A stretch of 64,000 nt of DNA from Candidatus Doudnabacteria bacterium (GCA_963768175.1 CAVYGQ010000001.1:254305-318304), one strand, 5' to 3'. Counted from the stretch's first letter, positions 2,783 to 63,615 are shown. Translations and numbers: made by a program. The notes: a model not told the origin generated them from the letters alone.

Positions 2783-2876
2783 TAATTAATAATAAATCTT
2801 AAATCCTTAATCTTTAATCCAATTATGAACAAAGAAACAATATCACAAGCGACAAACTTTAATTAATTTTATAGCT

Positions 2877-2948
2877 GTCGTCCTGAGCGAAGCGAAGGAT
2901 CCCTTAACACAAGATAAAGAGATTCCTCACTGCGTTCGGAATGACGCC
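2877..2948. repeat. Family-2 dispersed repeat (GTCCTGAGCGAAGCGAAGGATC ... AGAGATTCCTCACTGCGTTCGGAATGACGCC), intergenic atpG-atpD
   Basis: Near-identical architecture to the copy at 22338-22407; related copies at 4955, 16640-16790, 23880-23945, 28520, 47425, 50505, 56905, 57765, 59453, 63495. Confidence 0.8.
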
Positions 2949-2961
2949 TAAAGAGTATTAA

Positions 2962-4413
<1,452 letters not shown>

Positions 4414-4937: not shown

Positions 4938-5006
4938 TTTTATATAAATAATATTGTTCGAGCCCTTCGACTCCGCTCAGGGCAGGCTTGTCGAGAACAA
5001 TGGTAA

Positions 5007-6235: not shown

Positions 6236-6380
6236 GTATTGTAAAACCTATTTCGTGCCCCCCCCGACTACGCTCGGGACACCACTCGACTCCGTTTAGA
6301 GTTTGTGGTTGGTTGAGGCCTATACTAGGCCGAAATCACGAGCGAGTTTTGACGATAGTCAAAACGAGTTGAGTGGTGCC

Positions 6381-6545
6381 GAAGAGAGGAATTGCACCTC
6401 TGACCTTGGGCTTACTTGCCCGCCCACCAAATTTGAGGCGTTTAGAAAGGTTTTTTTGGTAGCGGGAAGAGGAATTGCACCTCTGACCTTGGGCTTACTT
6501 GCCCGCCCACCAAATTTGAGGCGTTTAGAAAGGTTTTTTTGGTAG
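6381..6545 (-). repeat. tandem direct repeat of about 82 bp (two copies plus a third fused to a tRNA-like sequence) carrying a tRNA 3'-half-like segment
   Basis: agaggaattgcacctctgaccttgggcttacttgcccgcccaccaaatttgaggcgtttagaaaggtttttttggtagcgggaag repeated; the minus-strand reading contains AAGCCCAAGGTCAGAGGTGCAATTCCTCTTCCCGCTACCA. Confidence 0.8.
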
Positions 6546-6617
6546 CGGGAAGAGGAATTGCACCTCTGACCTTGGGCTTATGAGTTCCCACGCTCTAACT
6601 AACTGAGCTATCCCGCC
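6540..6617 (-). other. tRNA-like sequence (78 nt) with good acceptor, D and T stems but a non-canonical anticodon arm
   Basis: GGCGGGATAGCTCAGTTAGTTAGAGCGTGGGAACTCATAAGCCCAAGGTCAGAGGTGCAATTCCTCTTCCCGCTACCA; the anticodon stem does not pair canonically and the T-loop is TGCAATT. Confidence 0.4.
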
Positions 6618-6818
6618 ATGTAACATATTGTTGGGAAATTTGGTGGGCGGGTGAAAGTCCCACGCTCCCCGCCCGTACCGAACGGTATGTTCGGGCGGGT
6701 AACTAACTGAGCTATCCCGCCATGTAACATATTGTTGGGAAATTTGGTGGGCGGGTGAAAGTCCCACGCTCCCCGCCCGTACCGAACGGTACGTTCGGGC
6801 GGGTAACTAACTGAGCTA
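6595..6818 (-). repeat. tandem direct repeat of about 112 bp (two copies plus a partial) carrying a tRNA 5'-fragment and a GC-rich palindrome
   Basis: ctaactaactgagctatcccgccatgtaacatattgttgggaaatttggtgggcgggtgaaagtcccacgctccccgcccgtaccgaacggta(t/c)gttcgggcgggtaa occurs twice. Confidence 0.8.
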
Positions 6819-7188
6819 CCCCGGCACGCCGCAACTCGCTCCAAGCTCCAGAATTTGCTAAAGCAAATTACTTTCGCTTTCCGCGGTTGCTCCTCTTTCC
6901 CAAAAATCCGTGCTCGTCACCCTGAGGGTGACTGCGCTCCTAATTTTCAGGAGCCTTTTTTTATAAAAACCCTCGTGCAGAGGGTAAAATCTGTCACGAT
7001 TTTAACTTTTTTAGTTTAACAATGTCGCATTCGCAACCACGGATTAGCCATATGTTCCCAAATGGGCTCTCCAAATTTTCTTCCTGGAAATGTCCTAGGA
7101 AAATTTGGGGAGAGGGGCAACATTCCGAACGAAGTGGAGTATCTCGCCCAAAGCGCGATACAAAACGGAGTGAGGAATGATTAACCCG

Positions 7189-15115: not shown

Positions 15116-16633
15116 ATGGACGAACAAACACCTCTAAATTCTGATGCTTTTACTTCAAAATCGGAACCGCAAAGCGAAACTTTATCCTCCGCCCGGACCA
15201 AACCTCAAACAGGGGAGGATTTGGTATTTTTTAATGTCATGCCCAAAGCCAGCACCCAAAGCGCTTTTATTGAACCAAAAATGAAGGTTGCCGTAATATC
15301 TGAAGAAGCCCCTGCCAAAACCAAAAACGGCTTTATGGAAATTTTTAAAAAATATAAACTATATATATTTATCGGGTTAGGCATTCTGGTTGCCGGAGCC
15401 GGAATATATTTTTTGATAAATTTTATAACCACGATTGGCTTAAACAGCTACAAAGCTGAAAATCTCCTGGTACAGCACCAGGCAAACCAAGCCCAAAAAC
15501 CGCAAACCCAAAGTCCCCAAACCACAGGGCAAACGGATTTTACGACGCCACAAACATGGAGAGATCATTATTTTACGGGCTGTACTGACGTAAAAGTCTG
15601 CGGCGATGACGCCGACCCAGACCACGACGGGCTTACCAATCTCCAGGAATACAAGTTAGGCACCGACCCAAATAATCCTGACTCCGACCAGGATGGCCTG
15701 GCCGACGGCGACGAAGTTAATGTTTTCGGCACCGACCCTTTAAACAGCCACACGGCCAATAATCCCAAATACTCCGACGCAGACTTTTTTAAGGGAGGCT
15801 ACGATATAACCACAAATAATAAAATGTCTGCCGCTCAAATTTCTGCTATAACGGCCAAAATGCAACAATTCGGCCTGCACGAACCAACCATTACCACTTT
15901 AAGCGGCGTGCTAGGCCCGTTATATAACTTTGCCGTCCCAAATTCCACGACCACCTCCACTTCAACCCAACCAAGCATGGCCAGCTCCACGAATCCAAAC
16001 GGGTTGGATGAATCAGTGGAAGCTAAGCAAGACCGCGACGCCCAGCGCTCGGACACCATAAAAAATTTGGAAATTGCCTTGGTTAAATACCAAACCGACA
16101 ATCAAGCTTACCCAGCGACCAATGACTTTAACGTCATGTATTTGGGAGTCAAACTTTACCTAAAAGTCGCGACAAACCCAATAGACCCAATTAACAAACC
16201 GCCTTACGTTTACTCCTACAGTTCCAATGCCAGCAGCTCCGATTTCAGTTTGTCTTTTTACAGCGAAGTTGCGGGCCAGCCGATAAGCAAAAATGCCGCC
16301 GACGCCATAAAAGACGCAAATAACGAGCAGTCAGCCATTTACGACAACCAAAGGGAAACCGATCTGGAAAGCATCAGAACGGCCCTGCTTTTATATTCCC
16401 AAAATAACGTCGCGGGCGGCCAGGATTACGTTTTCCCGACCAAAGGCAAATACAAAACCGCGATTGTGCCACAATATATTTCGGTAATACCAGTTGACCC
16501 GAAAACGGGAGCCGATTACGATTATGAAGTTTCGCCAACTTTTAACACCTTTACTTTAAAAACTTTGCTTGATAACCCGCCAACGGGAACCACAGGCTAT
16601 ATGTGCAACCAGGAAAACTGCCAAAATTACTAA
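15116..16633 (+). CDS. membrane-anchored protein with Ca-binding TSP3-like D-x-D-x-D-G repeats and two pseudopilin-like domains
   Basis: One TM helix, then DPDHDGLTNLQEYKLGTDPNNPDSDQDGLADGDE, then two regions resembling GspG-type pilin C-terminal domains. Confidence 0.5.
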   Translation: MDEQTPLNSDAFTSKSEPQSETLSSARTKPQTGEDLVFFNVMPKASTQSAFIEPKMKVAVISEEAPAKTKNGFMEIFKKYKLYIFIGLGILVAGAGIYFLINFITTIGLNSYKAENLLVQHQANQAQKPQTQSPQTTGQTDFTTPQTWRDHYFTGCTDVKVCGDDADPDHDGLTNLQEYKLGTDPNNPDSDQDGLADGDEVNVFGTDPLNSHTANNPKYSDADFFKGGYDITTNNKMSAAQISAITAKMQQFGLHEPTITTLSGVLGPLYNFAVPNSTTTSTSTQPSMASSTNPNGLDESVEAKQDRDAQRSDTIKNLEIALVKYQTDNQAYPATNDFNVMYLGVKLYLKVATNPIDPINKPPYVYSYSSNASSSDFSLSFYSEVAGQPISKNAADAIKDANNEQSAIYDNQRETDLESIRTALLLYSQNNVAGGQDYVFPTKGKYKTAIVPQYISVIPVDPKTGADYDYEVSPTFNTFTLKTLLDNPPTGTTGYMCNQENCQNY

Positions 16634-16806
16634 ATACCCACCCTCGGCGTTATCCTGAGCGGAAGCGTTGTGATCTCAATCAAAGATTAAGAGGATTCTT
16701 CGCCCTTCACCCTTTCGGCTTCGCTCAGGGTGCCTTGAGCAAAGTCGAAAGGCAGATGCATTCGGGCTCAGAATGACGCCAATAAAATAAGATTACTTCA
16801 GCTTTA

Positions 16807-17226
16807 ATGAAATTTTTTAACCAACTTTTTAAACGACTTTTTGGTAATAAACAATCTAACTTTGACGGCATTATTGCCGCCAAAGTTTTAGAAATACAAA
16901 AACACCCTAACGCGGACCGCTTAAGGATTGTAAAAGTTGATGCCGGAGATAAAATAATAGAGCCGATTGTATGCGGCGCGTTTAACTTTGACGCCGGCGC
17001 TATGGTAGCTTTGGCCTTGCCCGGGGCGAAAATCGCCCAAGACATCCATTCGCCTGACCACCAACCATTCGTATTGGGAAAAGCCAAAATTCGCGGCGTA
17101 GAGAGCCAAGGAATGATCTGCGCGGCCTTTGAACTCGGTCTCGCCAAAGAGCCCGGGCAGGGGATTATGCTGTTAAAAGATAATATTACGCCGGGTAGCA
17201 CATTTTCTCCCGAAATGGTAAAATAA
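16807..17226 (+). CDS. tRNA-binding domain protein (EMAP/Myf/CsaA-type OB fold, as in the PheT N-terminus)
   Basis: KVLEIQKHPNADRLRIVKVDAGD...VCGA...RGVESQGMICAAFELG. Confidence 0.7.
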   Translation: MKFFNQLFKRLFGNKQSNFDGIIAAKVLEIQKHPNADRLRIVKVDAGDKIIEPIVCGAFNFDAGAMVALALPGAKIAQDIHSPDHQPFVLGKAKIRGVESQGMICAAFELGLAKEPGQGIMLLKDNITPGSTFSPEMVK

Positions 17227-18461: not shown

Positions 18462-18462
18462 C

Positions 18463-18501
18463 ACAAGGGGCATCCTTTTGCTGCAAAAGGATGCCCCTTG
18501 T
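18463..18501. repeat. Family-1 variant palindromic element (39 bp perfect hairpin) 2 nt after the pheS stop
   Basis: acaaggggcatccttttgctgcaaaaggatgccccttgt: 16-bp stem, 5-nt loop; identical (inverted) copy at 60782-60820. Confidence 0.85.
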
Positions 18502-21657: not shown

Positions 21658-21709
21658 CCAAGGGCCATCTTCGGCCGACGAATCTCCTAAGTCCGAGGAT
21701 GACCCTTGG
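21658..21709. repeat. Family-1 palindromic element (intergenic, greA leader)
   Basis: ccaagggccatcttcggccgacgaatctcctaagtccgaggatgacccttgg aligns position-for-position with the atpG and atpD copies. Confidence 0.8.
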
Positions 21710-22307: not shown

Positions 22308-22337
22308 TTATAATCAAAATAACTTATAAGTTATTTT

Positions 22338-22407
22338 GTCCCGAGCGTAGCGAGGGATCTCTCAAAATTGAAGCATAGAGATTCTTCACTTCGTTCGGAA
22401 TGACGCC
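22338..22407. repeat. Family-2 dispersed repeat, upstream of and overlapping the annotated lysS start
   Basis: gtcccgagcgtagcgagggatctctc...agagattcttcacttcgttcggaatgacgcc; its terminal ATGACGCC supplies a spurious ATG (MTP...). Confidence 0.8.
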
Positions 22408-22417
22408 AATAAAACCT

Positions 22418-23881
22418 ATGTCCGAACGTTTTGAAGATATCCTAGCCGCGAGGCGGAAAAAATTGGAAGAAATCAAAAAAGCCGGGATAGACCCATACCC
22501 GCCTTTTACGTCGCGCACCCACACCAACAAACAGGCGGTGGATAATTTTGACGAGCTTGAAGGCAAAAAAATTACCGTAGTCGGCCGCATCCGCAGCTGG
22601 CGCGATATGGGCAAAATCACGTTCGCGCAAATTGAAGACGGCACCGGAAAAATCCAAATTTTATTCAAGCAAGAGTCGGTTGGAGCCGATAATTACCAAT
22701 TTATAATAAACAACACCGACATTGGAGACTTTATTGAGGCCACGGGTACGCTGTTTAAAACAAAAACCGGCGAAAAAACCATACAAGCCACAAGCTACAA
22801 GCTACTGGCTAAATCCCTCCGCCCCTTGCCCGACCAGCATTCCGGTTTGGCTGATGAAGAAATCAAATTACGGAAACGCTATTTGGACATTCTAATGGAC
22901 CCTTCCACAAAGGAAATTTTTGTTAAAAAGAACAAATTTTGGTCTTCCATGCGTGAATTTCTGGTAAAGAAAGGGTTTTTGGAGCTGGAAATGCCTGTTT
23001 TGGAAACCGTGCCGGGGGGAGCCGAGGCAGAACCCTTTATTACCCACCACAATGCCTTAGGCCGCGATTTTTATCTTAGAATAAGTCTGGAACTGCCGCT
23101 AAAAAAAATGCTGGTGGCGGGTTTGGAAAAAGTTTTTGAAATCGGCAGGATTTTTAGGAACGAGGGTATCTCCCCGGAACATTTACAGGACTACACCCAA
23201 ATGGAATTTTACTGGGCTTACGGCGATTTTGAAAAGTTAATGGATTTTTTGCAGGAGATGTACCAGTATGTTATAGAGCAAACTTTCGGCACGCTTAAAA
23301 TCACAAGTGGCGAAACAGAAGTCAATTGGAGCGGAAGCTGGGACAAGTACAATTACATTGATCTTTTTAAAAAGCATACGGGCTTGGACTTAATGGATTG
23401 TTCCGATGGTGAGCTGAAAAAATTTGCCGATAAAAACCATATTACTTACGAAAACTTTGCCCGCAGGGGACGGTTCATAGATTTAATTTTTAAAAAGAAA
23501 GTCCGAGCGAACATTAAAACCAATAAACCCGCCTTTTTAATCAACCAGCCTTTAGAGCTGGAGCCTTTGGCTAAGCGCGATCCCAAAAATCCCAAAATTG
23601 TCCAAAGGCTGCAAATTTTAGCCTACGGTACGGAGCTTGGCAAAGGTTTTGGGGAGCTTAACGATCCCGTAGACCAACGTTCACGCTTTGAAGAGCAAAT
23701 GAAGCTTAGGGCTGCCGGCGACAGCGAAGCCCAAATGCTGGATGAAGACTACGTAGAAGCCATGGAATACGGCATGCCTCCAGCCGCGGGTTTTGGCGTA
23801 AGCGAAAGACTATTTAGCGTACTAATGGGCAAATCTATCCGCGAAACCATAATTTTTCCGCCGATGAAATCAGAAAAATGA
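22418..23881 (+). CDS. lysS: lysine--tRNA ligase (class II)
   Basis: OB-fold N-domain, class II motifs (FRNEG, GFGVSERL); true start probably the second Met (22418) rather than 22400. Confidence 0.88.
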   Translation: MSERFEDILAARRKKLEEIKKAGIDPYPPFTSRTHTNKQAVDNFDELEGKKITVVGRIRSWRDMGKITFAQIEDGTGKIQILFKQESVGADNYQFIINNTDIGDFIEATGTLFKTKTGEKTIQATSYKLLAKSLRPLPDQHSGLADEEIKLRKRYLDILMDPSTKEIFVKKNKFWSSMREFLVKKGFLELEMPVLETVPGGAEAEPFITHHNALGRDFYLRISLELPLKKMLVAGLEKVFEIGRIFRNEGISPEHLQDYTQMEFYWAYGDFEKLMDFLQEMYQYVIEQTFGTLKITSGETEVNWSGSWDKYNYIDLFKKHTGLDLMDCSDGELKKFADKNHITYENFARRGRFIDLIFKKKVRANIKTNKPAFLINQPLELEPLAKRDPKNPKIVQRLQILAYGTELGKGFGELNDPVDQRSRFEEQMKLRAAGDSEAQMLDEDYVEAMEYGMPPAAGFGVSERLFSVLMGKSIRETIIFPPMKSEK

Positions 23882-23949
23882 CGCCAATGCCTGGCGTCAT
23901 CCCTGAATCAAGTTCAGGGCAGGCTCTGAGCGTAGCGAAGGATCTCTTT

Positions 23950-24708
23950 ATGGATGTTAGGTCAAAATATTTTGAAGCTGACGGAATAAAACTGCACTAC
24001 CTGATCCTAGGACAGGGAAGACCATTGCTATTCTTACATGGTGTCGGGGTTTCAACGCTTTCTTATCGCCATGTTTTAGATTTACTGGCTTCAAAATTTA
24101 CGGTTTATGCCCCAGATATTCCTGGCTTCGGCAAATCCAGCGTTCCACAAACCATTTGGAGTTATGAAGATTACGCAGAATTTTTAAATAAGTTTGCCGC
24201 GGACTTAAAATTACAAAATCTGATTCTGGTTGGCCATTCCTTTGGCGGAGAGATCGCGCTGCGCATGGCAAAAAAAAATGCGGAAATTTCTAAATTGGTT
24301 TTAATTGCCGCAACCGGAAGTCCGGTTATCCACTCCATCCCAAAACTTCTTTATATCATTCTGTTTAAGAAACATAGGACTAATCTCAAAGCTTATCAAG
24401 ACCCGCAAAGATTACATCTAATCCGGAATGATTATTTAAGCAATATCTGGCGAAAATTTAGCCAATCAATCACCCTAGCCAGAATAATTTTAAGATCAAT
24501 TTATTCGTCTGTAATTTTGGAAGAAAAATTGCCCACCGAAACCTTGATTTTGTGGAGTGAAAAAGATGAAATATTAGACTATGAATCTATTAATAAATTA
24601 AGCCAAAAACTTGGTCCGCATACTATAAGAAAACTCGATGAACATCATGACTGGCTGTTATTCAAACCAGAACTTTTAATGGAAGAATTGGATAAGCTTG
24701 GATTATAA
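23950..24708 (+). CDS. alpha/beta-hydrolase fold protein
   Basis: HGVGVS...GHSFGG nucleophile elbow; the annotated ORF start at 23878 lies inside a Family-2 repeat (MTPMPG...), so the true start is probably MDVRS at 23950. Confidence 0.7.
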   Translation: MDVRSKYFEADGIKLHYLILGQGRPLLFLHGVGVSTLSYRHVLDLLASKFTVYAPDIPGFGKSSVPQTIWSYEDYAEFLNKFAADLKLQNLILVGHSFGGEIALRMAKKNAEISKLVLIAATGSPVIHSIPKLLYIILFKKHRTNLKAYQDPQRLHLIRNDYLSNIWRKFSQSITLARIILRSIYSSVILEEKLPTETLILWSEKDEILDYESINKLSQKLGPHTIRKLDEHHDWLLFKPELLMEELDKLGL

Positions 24709-24720
24709 AATTATCACATT

Positions 24721-25143
24721 ATGGCGCAAAAACAAATTACCATAGTTGCTGCAATAATCAGGAATGAAAAAGGAGAAGTGCTTTTGGCCAAAAGAAACCA
24801 GCCTGAAACTACCGAAATCCACGGCAAGTGGGAATTCGTGGGAGGAGGCGTGGATTTTGGCGAGGATCCGGTAGCTTCGTTAAAAAGGGAGGTTTTGGAA
24901 GAAATCGGGGTTGAGGTGGAAGTACTCAGGTTATTACCAAAAGTTATCAGCGACATCCAAAAATACGATAACGGCAATAGGCTTCAGGTTTTGGTGCTGT
25001 CGTACGAATGCAAAATAATTTCCGGCATCCCGAAACCCACAGATGCGGAAATAGGGCAAGTAAAATTTTTTTCTTTGGAAGAAATTAAAAACCTGGATGC
25101 TTTCCAAAATATTTATGAAACAATCAGCCTTCTTCAATCATAA
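24721..25143 (+). CDS. NUDIX hydrolase
   Basis: Nudix box GGGVDFGEDPVASLKREVLEEIG. Confidence 0.8.
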   Translation: MAQKQITIVAAIIRNEKGEVLLAKRNQPETTEIHGKWEFVGGGVDFGEDPVASLKREVLEEIGVEVEVLRLLPKVISDIQKYDNGNRLQVLVLSYECKIISGIPKPTDAEIGQVKFFSLEEIKNLDAFQNIYETISLLQS

Positions 25144-28528: not shown

Positions 28529-28570
28529 AGATCCCTCGCTACGCTCGGGGTGAATTAATTTTTAACAAAA

Positions 28571-40139: not shown

Positions 40140-40240
40140 GAATCATTTTATCATACTATCATTTTAACATTTTAACATAACCGTAAAATTCCAGTTTGAT
40201 AACATGATAAAATGTTAAGATGTTAAGATGTTAAGATGAT

Positions 40241-41632
40241 TTACACCGGTTCTTCCGCCGGGATCATGCCCTCCATTACCGCTTGCGGGGAAACGTCAAA
40301 AGTCCGGTCTAAATTCTTAAACGAGGTCTTGTCCTGGTCAAAATATAAATCTATCTGGCCGGTGGGGCCGTTTCTGTGTTTTTTAATGTGGATTTCCGCG
40401 ATATGCGGGCGCCTGGCATCTTTGCCTTTATACATTTCTTCGCGGTAAATGAACATGACCACGTCCGCGTCCTGTTCAATGCTGCCGGATTCGCGCAAGT
40501 CGGCCAGCTGGGGAACTTTATCGGGACGGCTTTCCACGCCGCGGGATAATTGCGATAAAGCCAACACCGGCACGTTCAGTTCGCGGGCCAGCAGCTTTAA
40601 CGCGCGGGAAATTTCGGAAACTTCCTGCACGCGGTTTTCCTGGTTGCGTCCCTCCATCAATTGTAAATAGTCTACAATAATCAGCCCCGCGCCGTGCTCG
40701 GACTGGAGCCTGCGGGCTTTGGTGCGGAGCTCCATAATGTTGTTGCCGGCGGCGTCATCTATAAAAATAGGGGACTCGCTAAGTTCGCCCATGGCTTTGC
40801 CAATGTGGTCAAAGTCGTCTTCGTTTAAATGGCCGGTGCGGATTTTCCAAAGGTTAACGTCGCTTTGGCTGGAAAGCAGACGGTCCACCAACTGGTCTTT
40901 GCTCATTTCCAGAGAAAAAATTCCCACCGGCACTTTAACGTTTACCGCGACATGCCGCATAATGTCCAAAGCCAAGGAAGTCTTCCCCATAGAGGGGCGC
41001 GCGGCCAAAACCACCAAGTCCGATTTTTGCAAACCGCCAAGCAAGTTATCCAAATCCACGTAGCCAGTGGGAAGACCTCGCAATTTCCCTTTTTCACGAT
41101 GCAACTCGTCTATCCTTTCAAAGGTGGCGTGCAAAATATTGCCAATGGGGACAAAATTTTGTTTTAAATGTTTTTGCGAAATGCTGAATAATTTTTGTTC
41201 GGCAATATCTAAAATATCTTCCATTTCGCCTTCTTCCTTAAACGCGATATTGGAAATTTCTCCGGCGGCGGTAATTAATTTTCTTAACGTGCCTTTTTTC
41301 CGCACAATATAAGCGTAATGGGTTACGTGCGCGGCCGAGGGCACCGCGTTGACCAGCTGGGTTAAGTAAGAGCTGCCGCCGACTTTATCCAATAACTTTT
41401 TTTCTTCCAACCAGTTGGTCACGGTTAAAATATCAATTGAGGTATTTTTGGTATATAAATCCAAAATCGCCTCAAAAATCTGCTTGTTCTTTTCGTCGTA
41501 AAAATGGTCCGCGCTGACAATGTCGCCGATCTTGATAATCGCATCTTTATCCAGCATTAAACAACCGAGTACCGACATTTCGGCGTCCAGGTTTTGCGGC
41601 GGCATTCTTTGAATGAAGGAATTATCAGCCAT
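40241..41632 (-). CDS. dnaB: replicative DNA helicase DnaB
   Basis: N-terminal domain LPPQNLDAEMSVLG, RecA-like core GARPSMGKTSLAL, SLEMS, DYLQLM. Confidence 0.92.
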   Translation of the reverse strand: MADNSFIQRMPPQNLDAEMSVLGCLMLDKDAIIKIGDIVSADHFYDEKNKQIFEAILDLYTKNTSIDILTVTNWLEEKKLLDKVGGSSYLTQLVNAVPSAAHVTHYAYIVRKKGTLRKLITAAGEISNIAFKEEGEMEDILDIAEQKLFSISQKHLKQNFVPIGNILHATFERIDELHREKGKLRGLPTGYVDLDNLLGGLQKSDLVVLAARPSMGKTSLALDIMRHVAVNVKVPVGIFSLEMSKDQLVDRLLSSQSDVNLWKIRTGHLNEDDFDHIGKAMGELSESPIFIDDAAGNNIMELRTKARRLQSEHGAGLIIVDYLQLMEGRNQENRVQEVSEISRALKLLARELNVPVLALSQLSRGVESRPDKVPQLADLRESGSIEQDADVVMFIYREEMYKGKDARRPHIAEIHIKKHRNGPTGQIDLYFDQDKTSFKNLDRTFDVSPQAVMEGMIPAEEPV

Positions 41633-47426: not shown

Positions 47427-47450
47427 CAGATCCTTCGCTTCGCTTAGGAT

Positions 47451-47484
47451 AAAAAATTGGCGGCCGCCCGGCCGCCAATTTTCA
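47451..47484. terminator. bidirectional hairpin between map and thrS (convergent genes)
   Basis: aaaattggcggccgcccggccgccaatttt; preceded by a Family-2 repeat fragment. Confidence 0.65.
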
Positions 47485-50385: not shown

Positions 50386-50565
50386 CGGAAAGGAGGTCTA
50401 GATGAAAGCAAAACCGCCGCCGTGAGGTCCTATCCCTCCGGCGGCACGAATTTTTTACAGGGGTCTTTTTTTCTTCTGTACGCTACACGCTAACCGCTAT
50501 AAGCTTAATCCACCTCTCGACTACGCTCGGGGTGAATTAAAATTTTGTACAACAACGACAAAATT

Positions 50566-53500
50566 TTAATTCACATCCACCATATCTATCTGCGGAATCA
50601 GCCGCAATTTCGTCATCAGTTCGTTACTCATCGCCACTTGCGACTGGGTTTTTATTTTTTTTGCCCCCAAACCCGAGCCGACCGACAAATAAACCTGGAC
50701 GTTGCCCGGATGGGTTTGCAAAATATTTTTTATCTTGTTTAAAACATCTTTTTCGGCCAACGCCGACATATGCAAAACCACCTGCCGCTTTTTTTCCATT
50801 TGGCTCAGCGCCGTTGTGTATAAGTCGTCGTTCGGAAGCTCCGTAATTGTGTCCGCGATTAATTTAAACTCCTCGTCCTTGTCGGAAAGCCGGCCGGTAA
50901 CCTGCACAATTTTATCGTTTTCCAAAAACGGCAAACTTTTTTCCATGACTGTGGGGAAAACCAATACCTCTATGCTGCCGGTGAAATCTTCCAGGATAAA
51001 AAAGGCCATTGGGTCGTTCTTGCGCGTTAAAGTCCTCTTCATGCGGGAAACAATGCCCCCCATGACCACGTTTGCCCCAAGCTCGTCCAAAGTCAGGCTT
51101 TTAACCGTCCTTAAAGTAGCCAGCACTTTGCCGTAAGCATCCAGTGGATGCGCCGAAACATACATGCCCAAGTGCTCTTTTTCCCAAAGCAATTTTTCCT
51201 CTTTGGTGGCCGCCACAGATTCCCTTAATTTTAGTTTGCCGGCCTGCAAAGATTTGCCGAACAGGGAGTTTTGGCCGCTGGCTTCATTTTTAAAATGCTG
51301 CCGCACGAAGTCCAAAACTTCTTCGGTGTTATTAAGCAGCTGGCCGCGTTCGCCAAAAGCATCCAGCGCTCCGGCCTTAACCAAAGCTTCCCAGGACTTT
51401 TTGTTAAGATTTTTGGTATGAGATTTTATAAGGAAGTCTTCAAGGGATTGGAAATCGGCTTGGCCGGAAGTCGGACTTGATGAATTTTCCGATTTTCCGA
51501 TTTTCCGATTTTCCGATCTAACCTGTATAATCTTCTCTATCACATCGCTCCCCAAATTTTTAATCGCGTTTAGGCCAAAGCGGATAGTTTTGTCATCAAC
51601 TACGGTAAAATCGCCGAGCGATTCGTTTACATCCGGCGGCAAAACGGCAATACCCAAAGCCTGGCAGTCTTCCACGGCTTCGTAAATTTTTTCTTCGTCA
51701 CCGGACTCCGCGGTCATAAGCGCGGCCATAAATTCCACCGGAAAATTGGCCTTCATATAGGCGGTTTGGTAGCTGACAATGGCATACGAAGCCGAGTGCG
51801 CCTTGTTAAAACCATAAGCCGCAAACGGCTCTATCCACGTCCAAATTTGCGTAGCCTTTTCAAAGCTCCATTTGGAAGTTTCCTGGCAGCCCTGGATAAA
51901 CTTAATTTTTTGCTTGGCCATTTCCTCGGGAATTTTTTTGCCCACGGCTTTGCGGAACTTGTCCACCTCTTCCCAGGTATAGCCGGCCAAATCGTGCGCA
52001 ATAGTCAAAAGATCATCCTGGTAAACCAGCACCCCGTAAGTCCGGGAAAGGATTTTTTCCAGCGCCGGATCAAAGTATTTTATTAATTTTGGGTTGTTTT
52101 TGCGGGCAATGTACTCGGGAATAAACTGCATCGGACCAGGGCGGTAAAGCGCTATCATGGCCATAATGTCAAAAATTGACGACGGCTTGAGTTCGCGCAA
52201 ATACCGCGTCATGCCCGAAGAGCCCAGCTGGAACACGCCAAAAGTTAAACCCTCCGATAACAATTTAAAAGTTTTCGGGTCGGGATGGGGGAGATTGTAA
52301 ATATCTATCTTCACGCCGTGGCGCTGCTCCGTCATTTTTACCGCTGATTCCAGAATGCTAAGGTTGCGGATACCCAACAAATCCAGCTTGACCACGCCCA
52401 AAGCTTTGCCGTTGGCGTTAACGTCCAAAGCGTACATATCGTACTGGGTAATAATTCTTTCGCCGTCCGGCTCTTTTTGCAGCGGCATATAGTCGGTAAG
52501 GACGGTTGGGGTAATCACGATTCCGGCGGCGTGCATGGAGGCGTGGCGCGCGCAACCTTCCAGTTTTTTGGCGATTTCCAAAACGTGCCGGGTCTCCGGA
52601 TCATGGTCATAAATTTCCTTGAGCTCCGGACTTTTTCCCAAAGCCTTGTCCAAAGTCATTTGGAAACCCTGCTTGCCCAATCGGGATCATTTTGGCAATT
52701 TGGTCGCACTTGGAATAAGGCACGGCCAGCGCGCGGCCGGCATCGCGCACCGCGGCGCGCGCGGTCATGGTGCCAAAAGTAATAATTTGCGCGACTTTAT
52801 CTTTGCCGTAGTGTTCGGTAATATATTCTATGACCTCGTCACGGCGGTTGTCGGCAATATCCAAATCAATATCGGGCGGGGTGGGGCGATGCATGGTTAA
52901 AAAACGCTCAAACGGCAATTCATAATAAAGCGGGTCAACGTTGGTAATGCCCAAAATGCGCCCGACAATACTGCCGGCGGCGCTGCCCCTGGTGTTGGTA
53001 ATGGCGCCGATGTCATGCGCTCCCGCTACCACATCGGCCACCATTAAAAAATAAGTGTCAAAACCTTTTTTACAGATAATGTTCAGCTCGTAATCTATGC
53101 GCTGCTTGATGTCTTCGGGCAGGCGGCCGCTTTGGCCGTAAAGCGGCAACGCTTTTTCATAAGTAATCTTTTTAAGATATTCTTCGGATGTTTCGCCTTC
53201 CGGAATTTTAACTTTGGGAAAATATCGTCTGGTTAATTAATATTTCCAAATCGCACAGGTCGGCGACTTTTTGGGTGTTTTCCAAAGCTTCGGGCAAATC
53301 GGAAAACAGTTCCCACATCTTTTCCGGCGATTTTAAGGAAAGCTCGTAGCCGCGCATATCCAAACGGTCCTGGTCGTTTACCGTGCGTCCCGTGCCAATA
53401 CAAACCAGCACGTCCTGGGCCTCGGCGTCCTCGGGATAGATATAATGGCAGTCGGCGGTGGCGACAATGCCAAGATTATTCTTTTTGGCCAGAGCGATTA

Positions 53501-54074
53501 GTTTTTGGTTCAATTCTTCTTCCTTTGGATCTTTTGACTTGCTGTTTCTCTGAATTTCAATAAACAGCTTCTCGGGTCCAAAAATGTCCAAATATTTTCC
53601 CAAAACTTTTTGCGCCTCGGTTTCGGACTTGTTTGTTACCGCGCGCGCGATTTCCCCGCGCTGGCAACCGGACAGGCAAAGCAACCCTCCAGAGTGCTGT
53701 TTTAACAAAGCAAGGTCTATTCTCGGCTTATAATAAAACCCGCGTAAGTGGGCCTCGGTGGTGAGCTTGATTAAATTTTTATATCCGGAGTTGTTTTGGG
53801 CGAGCAAAATCAAATGATGGTAGTCCGCGTCCACCCTGCCTTCCTTTTCCTCCATGCCGCGCGGCGCTATGTAGGCTTCCAGCCCGACAATGGGTTTTAT
53901 TCCGGCTTCCCTACACTTGTTGTAAAATTCAATTGTCCCGTACATCACGCCGTGATCGGTAACGGCCAGCGCTTCCATACCGAGCTCTTTGGCGCGTTCA
54001 ATCAGCGGGTCAATTTTTGACAACCCGTCAAGCAGGGAATAATGGGAGTGGCAATGGAGATGGGTAAAGGTCAT
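50566..54074 (-). pseudogene. dnaE: DNA polymerase III alpha subunit (dnaE) interrupted by two apparent frameshifts (ORFs 53208-54074, 52607-53149(-53237), 50566-52680)
   Basis: PHP domain (HLHCHSHYSLLDG), palm/fingers, OB domain in three consecutive frames; shifts at about 53213-53224 (tattttcccaaa) and about 52650-52680 (cagggtttcc). Confidence 0.8.
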
Positions 54075-56717: not shown

Positions 56718-56956
56718 CAAAGTGGCATTTCTTACAAAGCCCTTGCCAAAGCAGGGGTTTTTTGATAGAATTATCAAGTCCCGCACCAATTTTAATAAGC
56801 CAACACTAATTAAAGTCATTAGTTCTAAAACGCAATCAATATCTTTCTATTGGAATGGTTTGTTGAAATTTGTACGGGATAAAATCTAAATTTTAAGGTT
56901 TTGTGAGTACCCTGAGCGTAGTCGAAGGGGATGGGCAAAGCCGGGCAAGGATCAAA

Positions 56957-57757: not shown

Positions 57758-57839
57758 AGGCTTTTTAACCCCGCCCCGAACGAAGTCGAGGGGCGGAGTT
57801 TTTGTATGTCGACAATATAATTTGATATACTTCCTAAGT

Positions 57840-58806: not shown

Positions 58807-59817
58807 TTAAACCTTCATTTCAATTTCAACGTATCGCCACAAGTTGTTGTAGTCTTTATAAAATTTTGCTTTTGATCCCGGCAAGGATTTTTTTATTAAT
58901 TTCAACAATAGCAATTTTTGCCTAGGATCAAATTCCAAATAAATCCAGCACTTTTTTGCCGGACTTTCATCAACTGGCGAAGATTTTATTAAACCATCTT
59001 TTTTAATGGAAGATTTTTGGGATTTTTCAAAAAGTGCTGGATATACCAACTTTGGTTTTTGCTTTCTTTGTGCTATTTGCTCCAATAAAAGACGGATAAT
59101 CATCAGCCCCTTTTCTTTGGTAAACAACGCTCGCTTTGGCTCAAATTTTAAACCAGCCGATTCCGCCGCGCGGTTGTTTTTCCAGGCGTGCGACAAATAT
59201 GGCAGATTAGCGATGATTATATCAAAATTGTCATTGATATTTTTTAACAAATCGCTTTGGATAAATTTTACTTTGACGTGATGTTTTTTAGCGTTTTGTT
59301 TGGCGATTTTAAGCGCGACTGCGGAAATGTCAGAAGCATACCAGTGGGGAATTTGTATATTTGTACAATTTTTCCACTGGTTAAATTTTGAAGCCAGGCT
59401 AATAATAATGCACCCGCTGCCGGTGCCAATATCCAAAATCCTGATTTTGCCTGCGTCATCCTGAGGAGTCAGACGACGAAGGATCTTTTTATTCCTTTTT
59501 TGAGATTCTTCGGCTTCGGTTGCGCTCAGCCTCAGAATGACGCCGTCGACGAGGGACTCCGTCTCCGGGCGGGGGATTAGCACATGGCTATTAACTTTAA
59601 ACCTCATGCCGTAAAAATCCTTATATCCCAAAATATAAGCCACCGGCTCTCCCACCAATCTGCGCCTTATCAGTCTTGATAAAATGTTAAAATGATAAGA
59701 TGATAAAATGTATTCCGGATGCAAAAAAACAAACTCCTTGGGTTTCCGCAGAACATGCGCCAGCAGGAGTTCGATTTCTATTTTATGATATTTTTTTAAT
59801 ATTTCTTTTATTGTCAT
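58807..59817 (-). CDS. prmC: release-factor glutamine methyltransferase PrmC (HemK), carrying two in-frame repeat-element insertions
   Basis: ILDIGTGSGCI, NLPY (NPPY-type) motifs; Family-2 repeat at 59453-59553 and Family-3 element at 58937-59047 are both translated in frame. Confidence 0.8.
   Translation of the reverse strand: MTIKEILKKYHKIEIELLLAHVLRKPKEFVFLHPEYILSSYHFNILSRLIRRRLVGEPVAYILGYKDFYGMRFKVNSHVLIPRPETESLVDGVILRLSATEAEESQKRNKKILRRLTPQDDAGKIRILDIGTGSGCIIISLASKFNQWKNCTNIQIPHWYASDISAVALKIAKQNAKKHHVKVKFIQSDLLKNINDNFDIIIANLPYLSHAWKNNRAAESAGLKFEPKRALFTKEKGLMIIRLLLEQIAQRKQKPKLVYPALFEKSQKSSIKKDGLIKSSPVDESPAKKCWIYLEFDPRQKLLLLKLIKKSLPGSKAKFYKDYNNLWRYVEIEMKV
58937..59047. repeat. Family-3 inverted-repeat element within the prmC 3' coding region
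   Basis: aaataaatccagcactttttt ... caaaaagtgctggatatacc; encodes ...YPALFEKSQKSSIKKDGLIKSSPVDESPAKKCWIYLEF... Confidence 0.65.
59453..59553. repeat. Family-2 repeat inserted in frame in prmC
   Basis: gcgtcatcctgaggagtcagacgacgaaggatc...gagattcttcggcttcggttgcgctcagcctcagaatgacgcc; encodes LRLSATEAEESQKRNKKILRRLTPQDDAGK between PRPETE and ILDIGTGSG. Confidence 0.65.
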
Positions 59818-60218: not shown

Positions 60219-61336
60219 TTTTTTAACGCCTCCTTTTTCAGTTCCAAATCCGCCTTTTGCAGGGCTTCGGCTATGGGGGTGAATTTACCTTCCATTATTA
60301 AATTTATCTGGTTAAAGTTCTGGTTTATTCGATGGTCAGTTACGCGATCTTGCGGGAAATTATAAGTGCGGATTTTTTCCGAGCGGTCGCCAGTGCCGAT
60401 TTGGGATTTGGTGAGGTCGCGGACTTTTTTATTTTCTATTTCCCCGTAATACGCGGCAACGCGGGCGCGGATGACTTCCAGAGCTTTTTCCCGGTTTTGC
60501 GCTTGCGATCTTTCGTCCTGGCACTGCGCGGTTATGCCGGTTGGGATGTGGGTAATGCGGATAGCCGAATAAGTCGTGTTAACCGACTGCCCGCCGTGCC
60601 CGCTGGAAGTGGTGGCTTCTATTTTTAAATCTTTTTCCGCAATGGCGTAATCTTTTTCTTCCAAAATCGGCAAAACCGCGACAGTTATAGTGGAAGTATG
60701 GACGCGGCCGCTTTTTTCCGTTTCCGGCACGCGCTGGACGCGGTGTACGCCGGATTCGTATTTGAAAACACTATACGGCCCACAAGGGGCATCCTTTTGC
60801 AGCAAAAGGATGCCCCTTGTGGCATGAATTTCAAAAATAATTTCCTTAAACCCGCCGGCGTCCGAACGCGAAGAAGAAACAATATGCGGCTTTAATCCCA
60901 GCTCTTCGGCAAATTTGCCGTAAGCGCGAAACATCTCGGCCGCGAACAATGTCGCTTCATCGCCGCCAGCCCCGGCGCGGATTTCCACAATGGCGTTTTT
61001 GGAGTCGTTGGGATTTTTGGGCAAGAGCATCTCTTCTATTTCGGATTTTAGATTTAAGATTTCGGATTCAAGCCGCCTGGATTCATCGAGAGCCATGGAC
61101 TTGATTTCCGGATTATTATCAGCCAATAATTTCTGGTTATCTTCAAGTTCTTTAATCTTTAATCCTAAATCTTTAATCTTTTCCACAACCGGCTCCAACT
61201 CCGCCTGTCGTTTGCCCAACTTGGCCATGCCTAAAGAGCCGCCCGACCTGTCCCCCGAAGCTTTAGCGAAGGGGGGAGACATGTCCGCGGTCAGCCGGTT
61301 ATATTCGTCTAAGATTTTTTGAAAAGCGATTTCCAT
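60215..61336 (-). CDS. prfA: peptide chain release factor 1
   Basis: GGQ motif (SGHGGQSVN), PET tripeptide in the RF1 PxT position, GVHRVQRVP; start is probably the Met at 61336 (MEIAFQKIL) directly after the conserved leader motif; contains in-frame 39-bp hairpin element ([13 protein letters not shown]). Confidence 0.88.
60782..60820. repeat. Family-1 variant 39-bp hairpin element inserted in frame in prfA
   Basis: acaaggggcatccttttgcagcaaaaggatgccccttgt is the exact reverse complement of the copy at 18463-18501. Confidence 0.85.
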
Positions 61337-63494: not shown

Positions 63495-63615
63495 TTGTGG
63501 CGTCATTCTGAAGCCTGAATGCATCTGAAGGCTGAAGAATCCCATTTGCGACGAATAAAGAGATCCTTCGGTCGTTGCTACTTCCCTCAGGATGACGCCG
63601 ACGAATGGGATCCCA
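63495..63615. repeat. Family-2 repeat (long form) downstream of tsf
   Basis: ggcgtcattctgaagcctgaatgcatctgaaggc ... ccctcaggatgacgcc; shares gcgtcattctga-N-gaatgcatctg with the copy at 16745-16790. Confidence 0.7.

Follow-up and report, generated by a model that had tools for sequence, protein, structure and literature searches.

A 64,000-nucleotide stretch of the genome of a Candidatus Doudnabacteria bacterium (GCA_963768175.1 CAVYGQ010000001.1:254305-318304), referred to below as the window, contains a family of dispersed palindromic repeats, full copies of which lie in the spacer between atpG and atpD and upstream of lysS. We consider it probable that this family belongs, as a variant, to the CGTC-tagged repetitive extragenic palindromes (REPs) and is composed of hairpin units that are paired in head-to-head doublets resembling REPINs (REP doublets forming hairpins) and that constitute non-autonomous selfish DNA. 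The class is a known one; what is new is the variant form and a much wider host range, not the kind of system. A sequence-only reading of the window had placed full copies near 2877-2948 and 22338-22407 and had listed 12 or more loci. Both copies are present, with limits now refined to 2876-2948 and 22335-22407 (72-73 nt), and a recognisable unit was found in all 12 listed loci.

Structure of the repeat unit

Reading of the 12 loci yielded the shared core YCCYGAG-CGNAG(N)-CGARGGR. The core GAR-CGNAG(N)-YGA occurs 11 times in the window, compared with 0.48 ± 0.68 occurrences expected from 300 dinucleotide shuffles (maximum, 3), and every occurrence is bordered by 4-5 complementary bases. The left-arm 22-mer GTCCTGAGCGAAGCGAAGGATC, with up to three mismatches allowed, gave 4 matches in the window (0.01 expected), and the right-arm 26-mer gave 2 (0 expected). 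The tagged head GCGTCATYCTGAG was found, with up to two mismatches, at 2935, 16647, 16767, 22394, 59453, 59531, 63500, and 63586. A loose definition based on structure only (a 5-bp stem with GAR...YGA) gave 33 matches versus 23 ± 4 in shuffled sequences and was dropped as unspecific; given that such a scan performs at chance level, the case for the family rests on the sequence motif and covariation rather than on generic hairpin potential. Two other sites were set aside: that at 6914 (GTCACCCTGAGGGTGAC) was judged to be a plain small palindrome outside the family, and a match at 25023 was attributed to chance.

A scan of 185,579 species-representative genomes for both ends of a doublet (GCGTCATYCTGAG-N40-70-CTCAGRATGACGC; approximately 0.03 chance matches by our own estimate) returned 104 exact stretches, which share the plan GCGTCAT-Y-CTGAG [X] CGAAG-R-ATC, a lineage-specific centre, and the mirror image. 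The 210 arms from other genomes are tagged by construction, given that the tag was part of the search pattern. The inner R was absent from the pattern and is hence a free position for counting pairs. It forms a Watson-Crick pair with the outer Y of its own arm in 179 of 184 arms (C-G in 97, T-A in 82), and Y differs between the two arms of a single copy in 50 of 92 copies.

From the outside inward, an arm consists of an unpaired (G)CGTC tag, an A-T and a T-A pair, three covarying pairs (YCT/AGR), a tandem G.A/A.G mismatch, a G-C and a C-G pair, and a GNA loop. In an alignment of 54 sequences (49 distinct arms and five window arms), 96% of cells were paired, a level reached by none of 500 shuffles. 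At one pair, 35 sequences have C-G and 18 have U-A; of the 54, 53 have U-A at pair 8-26 and 41 have A-U at pair 7-27. The window arms at 2920-2948 and 22379-22407 show double changes at two further pairs, from T-A to C-G and from G-C to A-U. The covariation within each arm, together with the differing arms of single copies, indicates that the arm is an autonomous hairpin, and the previous description of the two halves as an imperfect inverted repeat was therefore abandoned. The repeat unit is a predicted hairpin of 21-45 nt, corresponding to one arm, and not the 70-bp copy. Judged by sequence, full copies of 70-135 bp are head-to-head doublets of such independent hairpins, with tags directed outward and a short lineage-specific spacer; the tags are outward in all five doublets of the window.

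The segment from GAG to CGA spans 4-25 nt. The commonest forms of X are CGAAG, CGTAG, CGCAG, and CGGAG, which with their neighbours make up d(GCGNAGC), the extraordinarily stable mini-hairpin DNA of Hirao and colleagues (melting temperature of approximately 76°C; PMC13037366). Longer forms of X (6-25 nt) are nested GAG...CGA modules, such as GAG-G-GAG-TGCATC-CGA-C-CGA. Whole doublets fold better than shuffled sequences (z of -3.7 to -5.5). With nearest-neighbour DNA parameters, a single arm folds as (((((..((...))..))))) at -1.5 to -5.4 kcal/mol. Standard parameters may miss sheared G.A pairs and the GNA loop, so that folding of the arm rests on covariation. The proposed fold is a monomolecular hairpin of the GA strand, d(CGTCATCCTGAGCGAAGCGAAGGATC).

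Relation to CGTC-tagged REPs and REPINs

REPs have been divided into GTAG- and CGTC-tagged superfamilies (Di Nocera, De Gregorio & Rocco 2013, BMC Genomics 14:522; PMC3733652). According to that paper, CGTC REPs have an unpaired CGTC (variants, TGTC and CCTC), an uninterrupted stem of 8-9 bp that almost always starts with complementary A and T, a loop of 4-5 nt, and a short unpaired 3' tail that is mostly CCA. They occur mostly as head-to-head (HH) dimers with the tags outside, frequently as heterodimers, and lie between unidirectional or convergent open reading frames (ORFs); intragenic copies exist, no transposase is associated, and the hosts belong to five phyla. Families CGTC-1 to CGTC-4 include dRS3 of Neisseria and RPE-4 and RPE-6 of Rickettsia conorii. 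Peptides encoded by the repeats are tabulated there (VIPAKAGI...EIPAFAGMT, SFPRKRES...DSRFRGND, RHPGGGR...), and NH2-terminal copies are regarded as probable misannotation.

The family in the window shares with these elements the (G)CGTC/TGTC tag, the stem that begins with A-T, the head-to-head doublets, and the dispersal in spacers between co-directional or convergent genes, as well as intragenic copies, over-long ORF calls due to NH2-terminal copies, and the lack of a known associated transposase. The tip is likewise a mini-hairpin of the GCGAAAGC/GCGNAGC type. The frames of the encoded peptides are also set by the tag (VI.., RH.., ..MT, and ..ND/DD), here giving VILRLS..., RRHSE..., and ...QDDA; the peptides of the window variant are absent from the list of intragenic copies in the 2013 paper. 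The hosts, in contrast, extend beyond the five phyla of 2013 and include Patescibacteria, Acidobacteriota, Gemmatimonadota, Bacillota, Planctomycetota, and Verrucomicrobiota.

The likeness to REPINs and their REP-associated tyrosine transposases (RAYTs; Bertels & Rainey 2011; Nunvar et al. 2010) comprises the inverted doublet of short REP hairpins with a spacer, the multiple copies, the intergenic location, and the lack of target duplication. REPINs differ in having a GTAG tag and a single-copy RAYT (Y1 HUH) flanked by the same REPs, whereas the tag here is CGTC and tblastn with three RAYT-type queries (E. coli YafM and two RAYT-like ORFs) revealed no RAYT in the window. RAYT-like genes are present at loci L084 (Saccharibacteria) and L009 (Oscillospiraceae), both matching NF047646 below the cut-off and one matching PF01797. 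We rejected them as mobilisers of CGTC units, given that the units flanking them and within them are GTAG REPs rather than CGTC units, which agrees with the 2013 conclusion on CGTC REPs. The GTAG REPs are in frame within these genes (L084 3756-4286 and L009 3784-4293), where GTAGGGGAGGGTTTGAAACCCTCCCCTAC encodes VGEGFKPSPT and GGGGCGATTCATGAATCGCCCC encodes GAIHESP. A further RAYT match, at 7655-7700 of L103, proved to be a GTAG REP in frame within rpsG (ribosomal protein S7).

Several observations weigh against the assignment to selfish CGTC REPs. The stem is broken by tandem G.A on each side of the tip (CTGAG...CGAAG), so that an arm has five Watson-Crick pairs, tandem G.A, two Watson-Crick pairs, and a 3-nt loop in place of the published 8-9 bp. 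The tip loop is 3 nt or consists of nested modules of 6-25 nt, and the tail is CTC, CCC, or CTG rather than CCA. Several units in the window lack the tag. The assignment was made at the level of the superfamily, by the features described in the 2013 paper. The folding energy of single arms is not better than that of shuffled sequences and was not used as evidence. Neither the window nor the related loci yielded a mobilising enzyme, and no strain-level pair of filled and empty sites, as expected of recent transposition, was observed among the available relatives, which are too diverged. The conservation of the copy in prmC over a long divergence, described below, reflects persistence, not activity.

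Units in the window

The units of the family and the genes that bear on them are as follows.

2876-2948: doublet A, in the atpG/atpD spacer; fold of -24.6 kcal/mol, z -3.7
2876-2902 (+): left unit of doublet A; tag TGTC, stem GTCCT..AGGAT
2920-2948 (-): right unit of doublet A; GGCGTC-ATTCC-GAA-CGCAG-TGA-GGAAT, with compensatory changes at two stem pairs
4955-4999: nested palindromes between atpC and the next gene; outer pair TGTTCGAG..CTCGAGAACA-like
4960-4985 (-): inner unit of the preceding; GCCCT-GAG-CGGAGT-CGA-AGGGC
7119-7145 (+): degenerate unit of doubtful membership, beside tRNA-Met; ACATTCC-GAA-CGAAG-TGG-AGTAT
16646-16780: compound doublet E, between the ORF 15116-16633 and a tRNA-binding-domain gene (16807-17226); fold z -5.3
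16646-16678: left unit of doublet E, degenerate, 12 nt after the upstream gene
16690-16780 (-): right unit of doublet E, with two nested small hairpins at approximately 16706-16731 (-) and 16732-16753 (+)
22335-22407: doublet B, between the greA terminator and lysS; fold of -29 kcal/mol, z -4.1
22335-22360 (+): left unit of doublet B; degenerate tag TTTGTC
22379-22407 (-): right unit of doublet B; tag GGCGTC, terminal ATGACGCC giving an ATG at 22400
22418-23881 (+): lysS; probable true start at Met7 of the ORF opening at 22400
23878-23946 (+): cluster F, at the lysS/hydrolase junction; in order, a lone tag ATGACGCC that includes the lysS stop codon and the ATG of the hydrolase ORF, GGCGTC-ATCCCTGAA..TTCAGGG, and the untagged unit CTCTGAGCGTAGCGAAGGATCTC
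23950-24708 (+): alpha/beta hydrolase; probable true start at Met25 of the ORF opening at 23878
28529-28553 (-): single unit without a CGTC tag, TCACCCC-GAG-CGTAG-CGA-GGGAT; between convergent genes, adjoining a terminator-like hairpin
47427-47452 (-): single unit without a CGTC tag, TTATCCT-AAG-CGAAG-CGA-AGGAT; between convergent map and thrS
50510-50537 (-): single core-only unit, CACCCC-GAG-CGTAGT-CGA-GAGGTGG; downstream of dnaE
56905-56932 (+): single core-only unit, ACCCT-GAG-CGTAGT-CGA-AGGGG; in the 5' end of the rplY (L25) ORF, whose called start codon is GTG 56903
57766-57799 (+): core-only unit, CCCCGCCCC-GAA-CGAAGT-CGA-GGGGCGG followed by TTTTT; immediately past the rplY stop codon
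58807-59817 (-): prmC, release-factor glutamine methyltransferase, 336 amino acids; host of doublet C
59452-59544: doublet C, 93 nt within prmC; units 59452-59486 (+) and 59503-59544 (-), both CGTC-tagged, the latter containing a nested GAG..CGA module
63499-63599: doublet D, starting 12 nt past the tsf stop codon; units 63499-63542 (+), with a nested GAA-TGCATC-TGA module, and 63561-63599 (-), both GGCGTC-tagged; fold z -4.1

The family is thus heterogeneous: the CGTC/TGTC tag (GGCGTC, TGCGTC, or TGTC directly 5' of the stem) is present on only about 10 arms in the window, and the units at 4960-4985, 28529-28553, 50510-50537, 56905-56932, and 57766-57799 consist of the core with another tag or none. 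The GC content of the window is 40-50%, and its genes are housekeeping genes only: atpAGDC, a uvrD-like gene, pheS, gyrB, greA, lysS, serS, thrS, cysS, dnaB, recR, dnaE, rplY, prfA, prmC, rpsB, and tsf. Gene and domain annotation together with tblastn revealed no transposase of any kind within the window.

The positions of the units in short spacers after stop codons (doublets D and E each follow a gene by 12 nt) suit the view that they are functional RNA elements (terminators, attenuators, or 3'-end stabilisers of mRNA) selected at each site, as do the folding of the doublets as RNA and the unit at 57766-57799, which with its T-run looks like an intrinsic terminator. REPs of E. coli stabilise upstream mRNA. 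We nevertheless regard this explanation as quite unlikely. Tagged single units in low-GC loci are sense to flanking genes in 7 cases and antisense in 10, and units within ORFs are sense in 11 and antisense in 13; this lack of strand preference indicates that RNA function is not the organising principle. The strand bias suggested by the untagged single units in the window, all seven of which appeared to be sense to an adjacent gene, was not borne out in the tagged units. Copies also lie inside coding regions and upstream of genes, and the same 28-mer is found across genomes of 33-71% GC in unrelated contexts. Only tRNAs passed the gathering score of Rfam 15 in the window, and a permissive scan of two copies gave chance-level matches (E of 0.5-9). 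An RNA-hairpin role of intergenic copies of the selfish element, as terminator or mRNA stabiliser, may be secondary or incidental.

Distribution among bacteria

The family extends beyond the window, as is apparent from the 104 double-end matches in genomes and at least 80 metagenome contigs. The 104 matches come from approximately 50 genomes of at least 14 phyla, with identical 13-nt ends. Carriers include Saccharibacteria, Doudnabacteria, other Patescibacteria, Acidobacteriota, Gemmatimonadota, Clostridia, Verrucomicrobiota, Planctomycetota, Bacteroidota, Abditibacteriota, Omnitrophota, Hydrogenedentota, Alpha- and Betaproteobacteria, Chloroflexota, Melainabacteria, and Bifidobacterium. Examples from Doudnabacteria or Saccharibacteria are CAWINB010000004.1 and the CAZQFQ01 bin, the latter with at least 14 loci. 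Isolates account for three carriers (Abditibacteriota IAD-21, Hymenobacter rigui, and Bifidobacterium vespertilionis), and errors in the binning of metagenome-assembled genomes (MAGs) therefore cannot explain the spread. In many loci the seed doublet is accompanied by further heads (306 in 747 kb). The metagenome contigs contain exact matches to the right arm of copies A and B (28 nt), and their GC content ranges from 33 to 71%. Viral contigs, plasmids, and phages gave no matches. Same-strand arrays of CGTC heads spaced by 20-32 nt lie beside the doublet at 2845-3079 of L093 (B. vespertilionis) and at 4150-4230 of L080 (a Clostridia MAG). A search of the literature with sequence strings and for in-frame palindromes of the candidate phyla radiation (CPR) returned nothing relevant.

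Site occupancy differs between relatives. Locus L105, which has the same tsf-rpsB-prfA-prmC neighbourhood and is 72% identical in nucleotide sequence in prmC, shares the prmC copy, but its orthologous tsf spacer lacks doublet D. Locus L170, syntenic over gyrB-greA, has a doublet 30 nt upstream of greA, whereas that in the window lies downstream of greA. We infer mobility from these differences between diverged relatives.

Identical sequences of 13-28 nt across at least 14 phyla and 33-71% GC might also be kept by selection as a host-serving signal in single-stranded DNA, such as a site for primase, gyrase, or another host factor. Phage G4 and RSF1010 have GCGNAGC-type mini-hairpins at their single-strand initiation sites (PMC13037366), and no dedicated transposase is known (PMC3733652). 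Such a function appears very unlikely: relatives differ in the number and positions of copies, the element is missing from most genomes (with only 104 exact matches among the 185,579 species genomes), in-gene and mutually nested copies look parasitic, and Di Nocera et al. argued that the uneven distribution of CGTC REPs rules out a general function (PMC3733652).

The family had further been described as probably REP/MITE-like. The first half of that description stands, in that the units are genuine dispersed palindromes; the second does not, given that target-site duplication is lacking and that no insertion sequence (IS) sharing the ends was seen in the window or 186 loci. A classical miniature inverted-repeat transposable element (MITE) would be a deletion derivative of an IS, with terminal inverted repeats of 13-14 nt (GGCGTCATYCTGAG) acted on in trans by a DDE transposase. 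Elements such as Correia/NEMIS, RUP, and Nezha resemble the family in their size, their inverted ends, their dispersal between genes, and the effects that they occasionally have on neighbouring ORFs, and the conserved ends, the size of 70-135 bp, and the occurrence of the doublet within a repeated unit of approximately 190 bp in one Verrucomicrobia genome would fit. That unit was examined as a candidate for a larger gene-bearing element and rejected, the loci containing only the repeat and no ORF. Among 103 copies, however, 3-nt direct repeats flanked one (1.6 expected) and none were of 4 nt or longer; an excess of 2-nt matches is explained by complementarity of the flanks running 1-2 nt outward (YG-GCGTC...GACGC-CR), a palindromic CG extension. 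Each end is itself a covarying self-complementary hairpin, the two ends are often of different subtype, and single arms occur alone, in contrast to the ends of MITEs. Neither a parent IS with the same ends in the window or 186 loci nor a transposase with these ends in the window or the 104 loci was seen, and we regard a MITE origin as highly improbable.

Copies within prmC and other genes

As the sequence-only reading had stated, doublet C lies in frame in prmC between the PRPETE and GTGSG motifs, and the reading frame is continuous. The doublet is predicted to be translated as GVILRLSATEAEESQKRNKKILRRLTPQDDA between PRPETE and ILDIGTGSG, with GVILRLSATEAEESQK as the putative insert peptide. 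The PRPETE, GTGSG, and NLPY motifs are intact. TGA within the head closes one of the three frames, leaving two open. The estimate of about 30 added amino acids agrees with the length of the element (93 nt, or 31 codons), whereas the net gain over the shortest orthologues is only about 19 residues.

In the prmC of L105, the element occupies the corresponding position, has the same orientation, and differs by a 6-nt indel that preserves the frame; identity between the two is 72-88% for the element and 72% for the whole gene. This conservation indicates that the insertion is old and that its reading frame has been kept open. The best named homologues of the window PrmC are from Doudnabacteria MAGs (Patescibacteria/CPR), and a protein identical to it (P0001) is encoded on a 1.8-kb Logan contig. 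The next PrmC after that of L105 is 55-59% identical by BLASTP, with no closer relatives in the databases.

Comparison with PrmC orthologues, as the earlier reading had suggested, showed that the insert lies in a segment of variable length that contains other inserts in other orthologues. Among 26 orthologues, the segment from PETE to ILDxGTGSG ranges from about 20 residues (P0014, P0022, P0048, and P0056) to more than 60. The long orthologues contain other CGTC-type translations (VIARSQATKQS..., VIPGAS...RNDT, VIAKNQ..., and ...LGWDDT), which start 4, 8, or 15 residues past PETE; these differing start points indicate several independent insertions into one tolerant segment. In an AlphaFold2 model of PrmC (mean confidence score, pLDDT, of 75.7), the methyltransferase fold is retained, the first arm is predicted to extend helix 86-108, and the remainder would form a low-confidence or disordered loop (109-120).

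Other in-gene copies in CPR loci are found in MnmA (L015 and L034), MiaA (L098), a TatD-like protein (L001), and RecX (L084). The CGTC doublets of MnmA (L015 6439-6519 and L034 5086-5178) lie at the same position in opposite orientations in two Patescibacteria genomes, and this site, between ..ATGHYA.. and ..KDQTYF.., is a second insertion hot spot like that of PrmC.

Rickettsia palindromic elements (Ogata et al. 2000, 2002) likewise lie in frame in essential genes, apparently at surface-exposed positions, and do not destroy the gene. The prmC copy appears to be of this in-frame type, with the catalytic motifs predicted to be intact. RPE-1 differs in being longer (approximately 100-150 bp) and unrelated in sequence, and its host is an alpha-proteobacterial endosymbiont rather than a free or epibiotic CPR bacterium. 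The guanylate kinase of R. conorii, which contains an RPE, has reportedly been expressed and assayed with and without the insert.

The window also contains palindromes of other families within genes. A 52-nt family (CCAAGGGGCATCCTCGGACC...CCGAAGATGCCCCTTGG) is in frame at 2134-2185 in atpG and at 3087-3138 in atpD, with a third copy at 21658-21709, where the greA ORF begins; compared with every solved beta subunit, AtpD carries an insert of approximately 24 residues (36-60) exactly at this palindrome. Perfect 40-nt hairpins that are 98% identical (CACAAGGGGCATCCTTTTGC.GCAAAAGGATGCCCCTTGT) lie at 18462-18501, just past the pheS stop codon, and at 60781-60820 in prfA, where release factor 1 (RF1) has a 12-residue insert relative to Thermus RF1. 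A second insertion in prmC, at approximately 58955-59047 (residues ~258-288), has a perfect inverted repeat of 12 bp at its borders (CCAGCACTTTTT / AAAAAGTGCTGG); most orthologues lack it, P0004 shares it in part, and its AlphaFold confidence is low. An 8-nt tandem array (TGATAAAA/TGTTAAGA) is present in the recR-dnaB spacer (40189-40246) and again in the 5' part of prmC (59677-59718).

Start codons of lysS and the hydrolase gene

The ATG within ATGACGCC opens both the lysS ORF (22400) and the hydrolase ORF (23878), and both products begin with MTP, as had been noted previously. The accompanying claim that these starts are spurious was borne out in part, in that homology favours a downstream Met in both cases. 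A Shine-Dalgarno-like motif precedes only about 11 of 55 ORF starts in the window, so that start codons here cannot be judged from ribosome-binding sites. Residue 9 of the LysS ORF aligns with residue 3 of the Geobacillus enzyme (3a74_A), and Met7 (22418) therefore matches a normal start; the alternative NH2-termini are MTPIKPMSER and MSERFEDILAAR, and the MTPIKP start is probably spurious. In the hydrolase ORF, the first 24 residues are encoded by the repeat and the Pfam domain Abhydrolase_1 starts at residue 49, so that Met25 (23950), the probable true start, leaves the usual 24 residues before the domain.

Units of the family thus make false NH2-terminal extensions (MTP...) in gene calls and, in CPR genomes as in many others, add odd low-complexity peptides (VILS.., RRHSE.., and ..AQDDA) to predicted proteins. 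Masking of the units would clean up such calls.

Proposed mode of spread

We propose that the units are probably non-autonomous selfish DNA that acts as folded hairpins on single-stranded DNA. A trans-acting enzyme encoded outside the window, RAYT-like or other, would copy them to new sites and leave no target duplication. Copies would persist where they do little harm, in short spacers between co-directional or convergent genes, and, within proteins, in surface loops when length and frame allow. The ORF-lengthening ATGs of ATGACGCC and the 31-codon insert in PrmC would be side effects.

A further-reaching proposal, which we put forward tentatively and regard as rather doubtful, is that the GA-interrupted CGTC hairpin is a single pan-bacterial element, its ends being identical over 13-28 nt in at least 14 phyla of 33-71% GC. 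It would depend not on a dedicated transposase but on a widely conserved or transferred factor that recognises the folded d(GCGNAGC)-tipped hairpin of single-stranded DNA. For streamlined CPR genomes, a major source of new peptide segments in essential proteins would then be this element with its sister palindromes, much as in Rickettsia (PrmC, AtpG, AtpD, and RF1 in the window; MnmA, MiaA, RecX, and S7 at related loci).

CGTC REPs are the one large REP class without a known mobilising enzyme. Since the ends are identical in a great many phyla, and since the carriers include tiny CPR genomes in which candidate genes are few, a search for the enzyme by phylogenetic profile is feasible. The tolerance of palindromic insertions in several essential proteins, seen here in a CPR bacterium, was earlier considered peculiar to Rickettsia.

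Other features of the window

The dnaE gene (- strand, 50566-54074) is apparently split, with the PHP domain at 53208-54074, a 180-amino acid ORF at 52607-53149, and the polymerase core at 50566-52680, matching its profile from position 169; such an arrangement could be a frameshift, a split gene, or the result of an interrupting element. Between tRNA-Asp and tRNA-Met (6374-6830), tandem repeats of 83 and 104 nt are built of tRNA-like fragments. Within them, ARAGORN called 6540-6617 as 'tRNA-???' with a 2-base anticodon, and Rfam scored the same stretch as tRNA.

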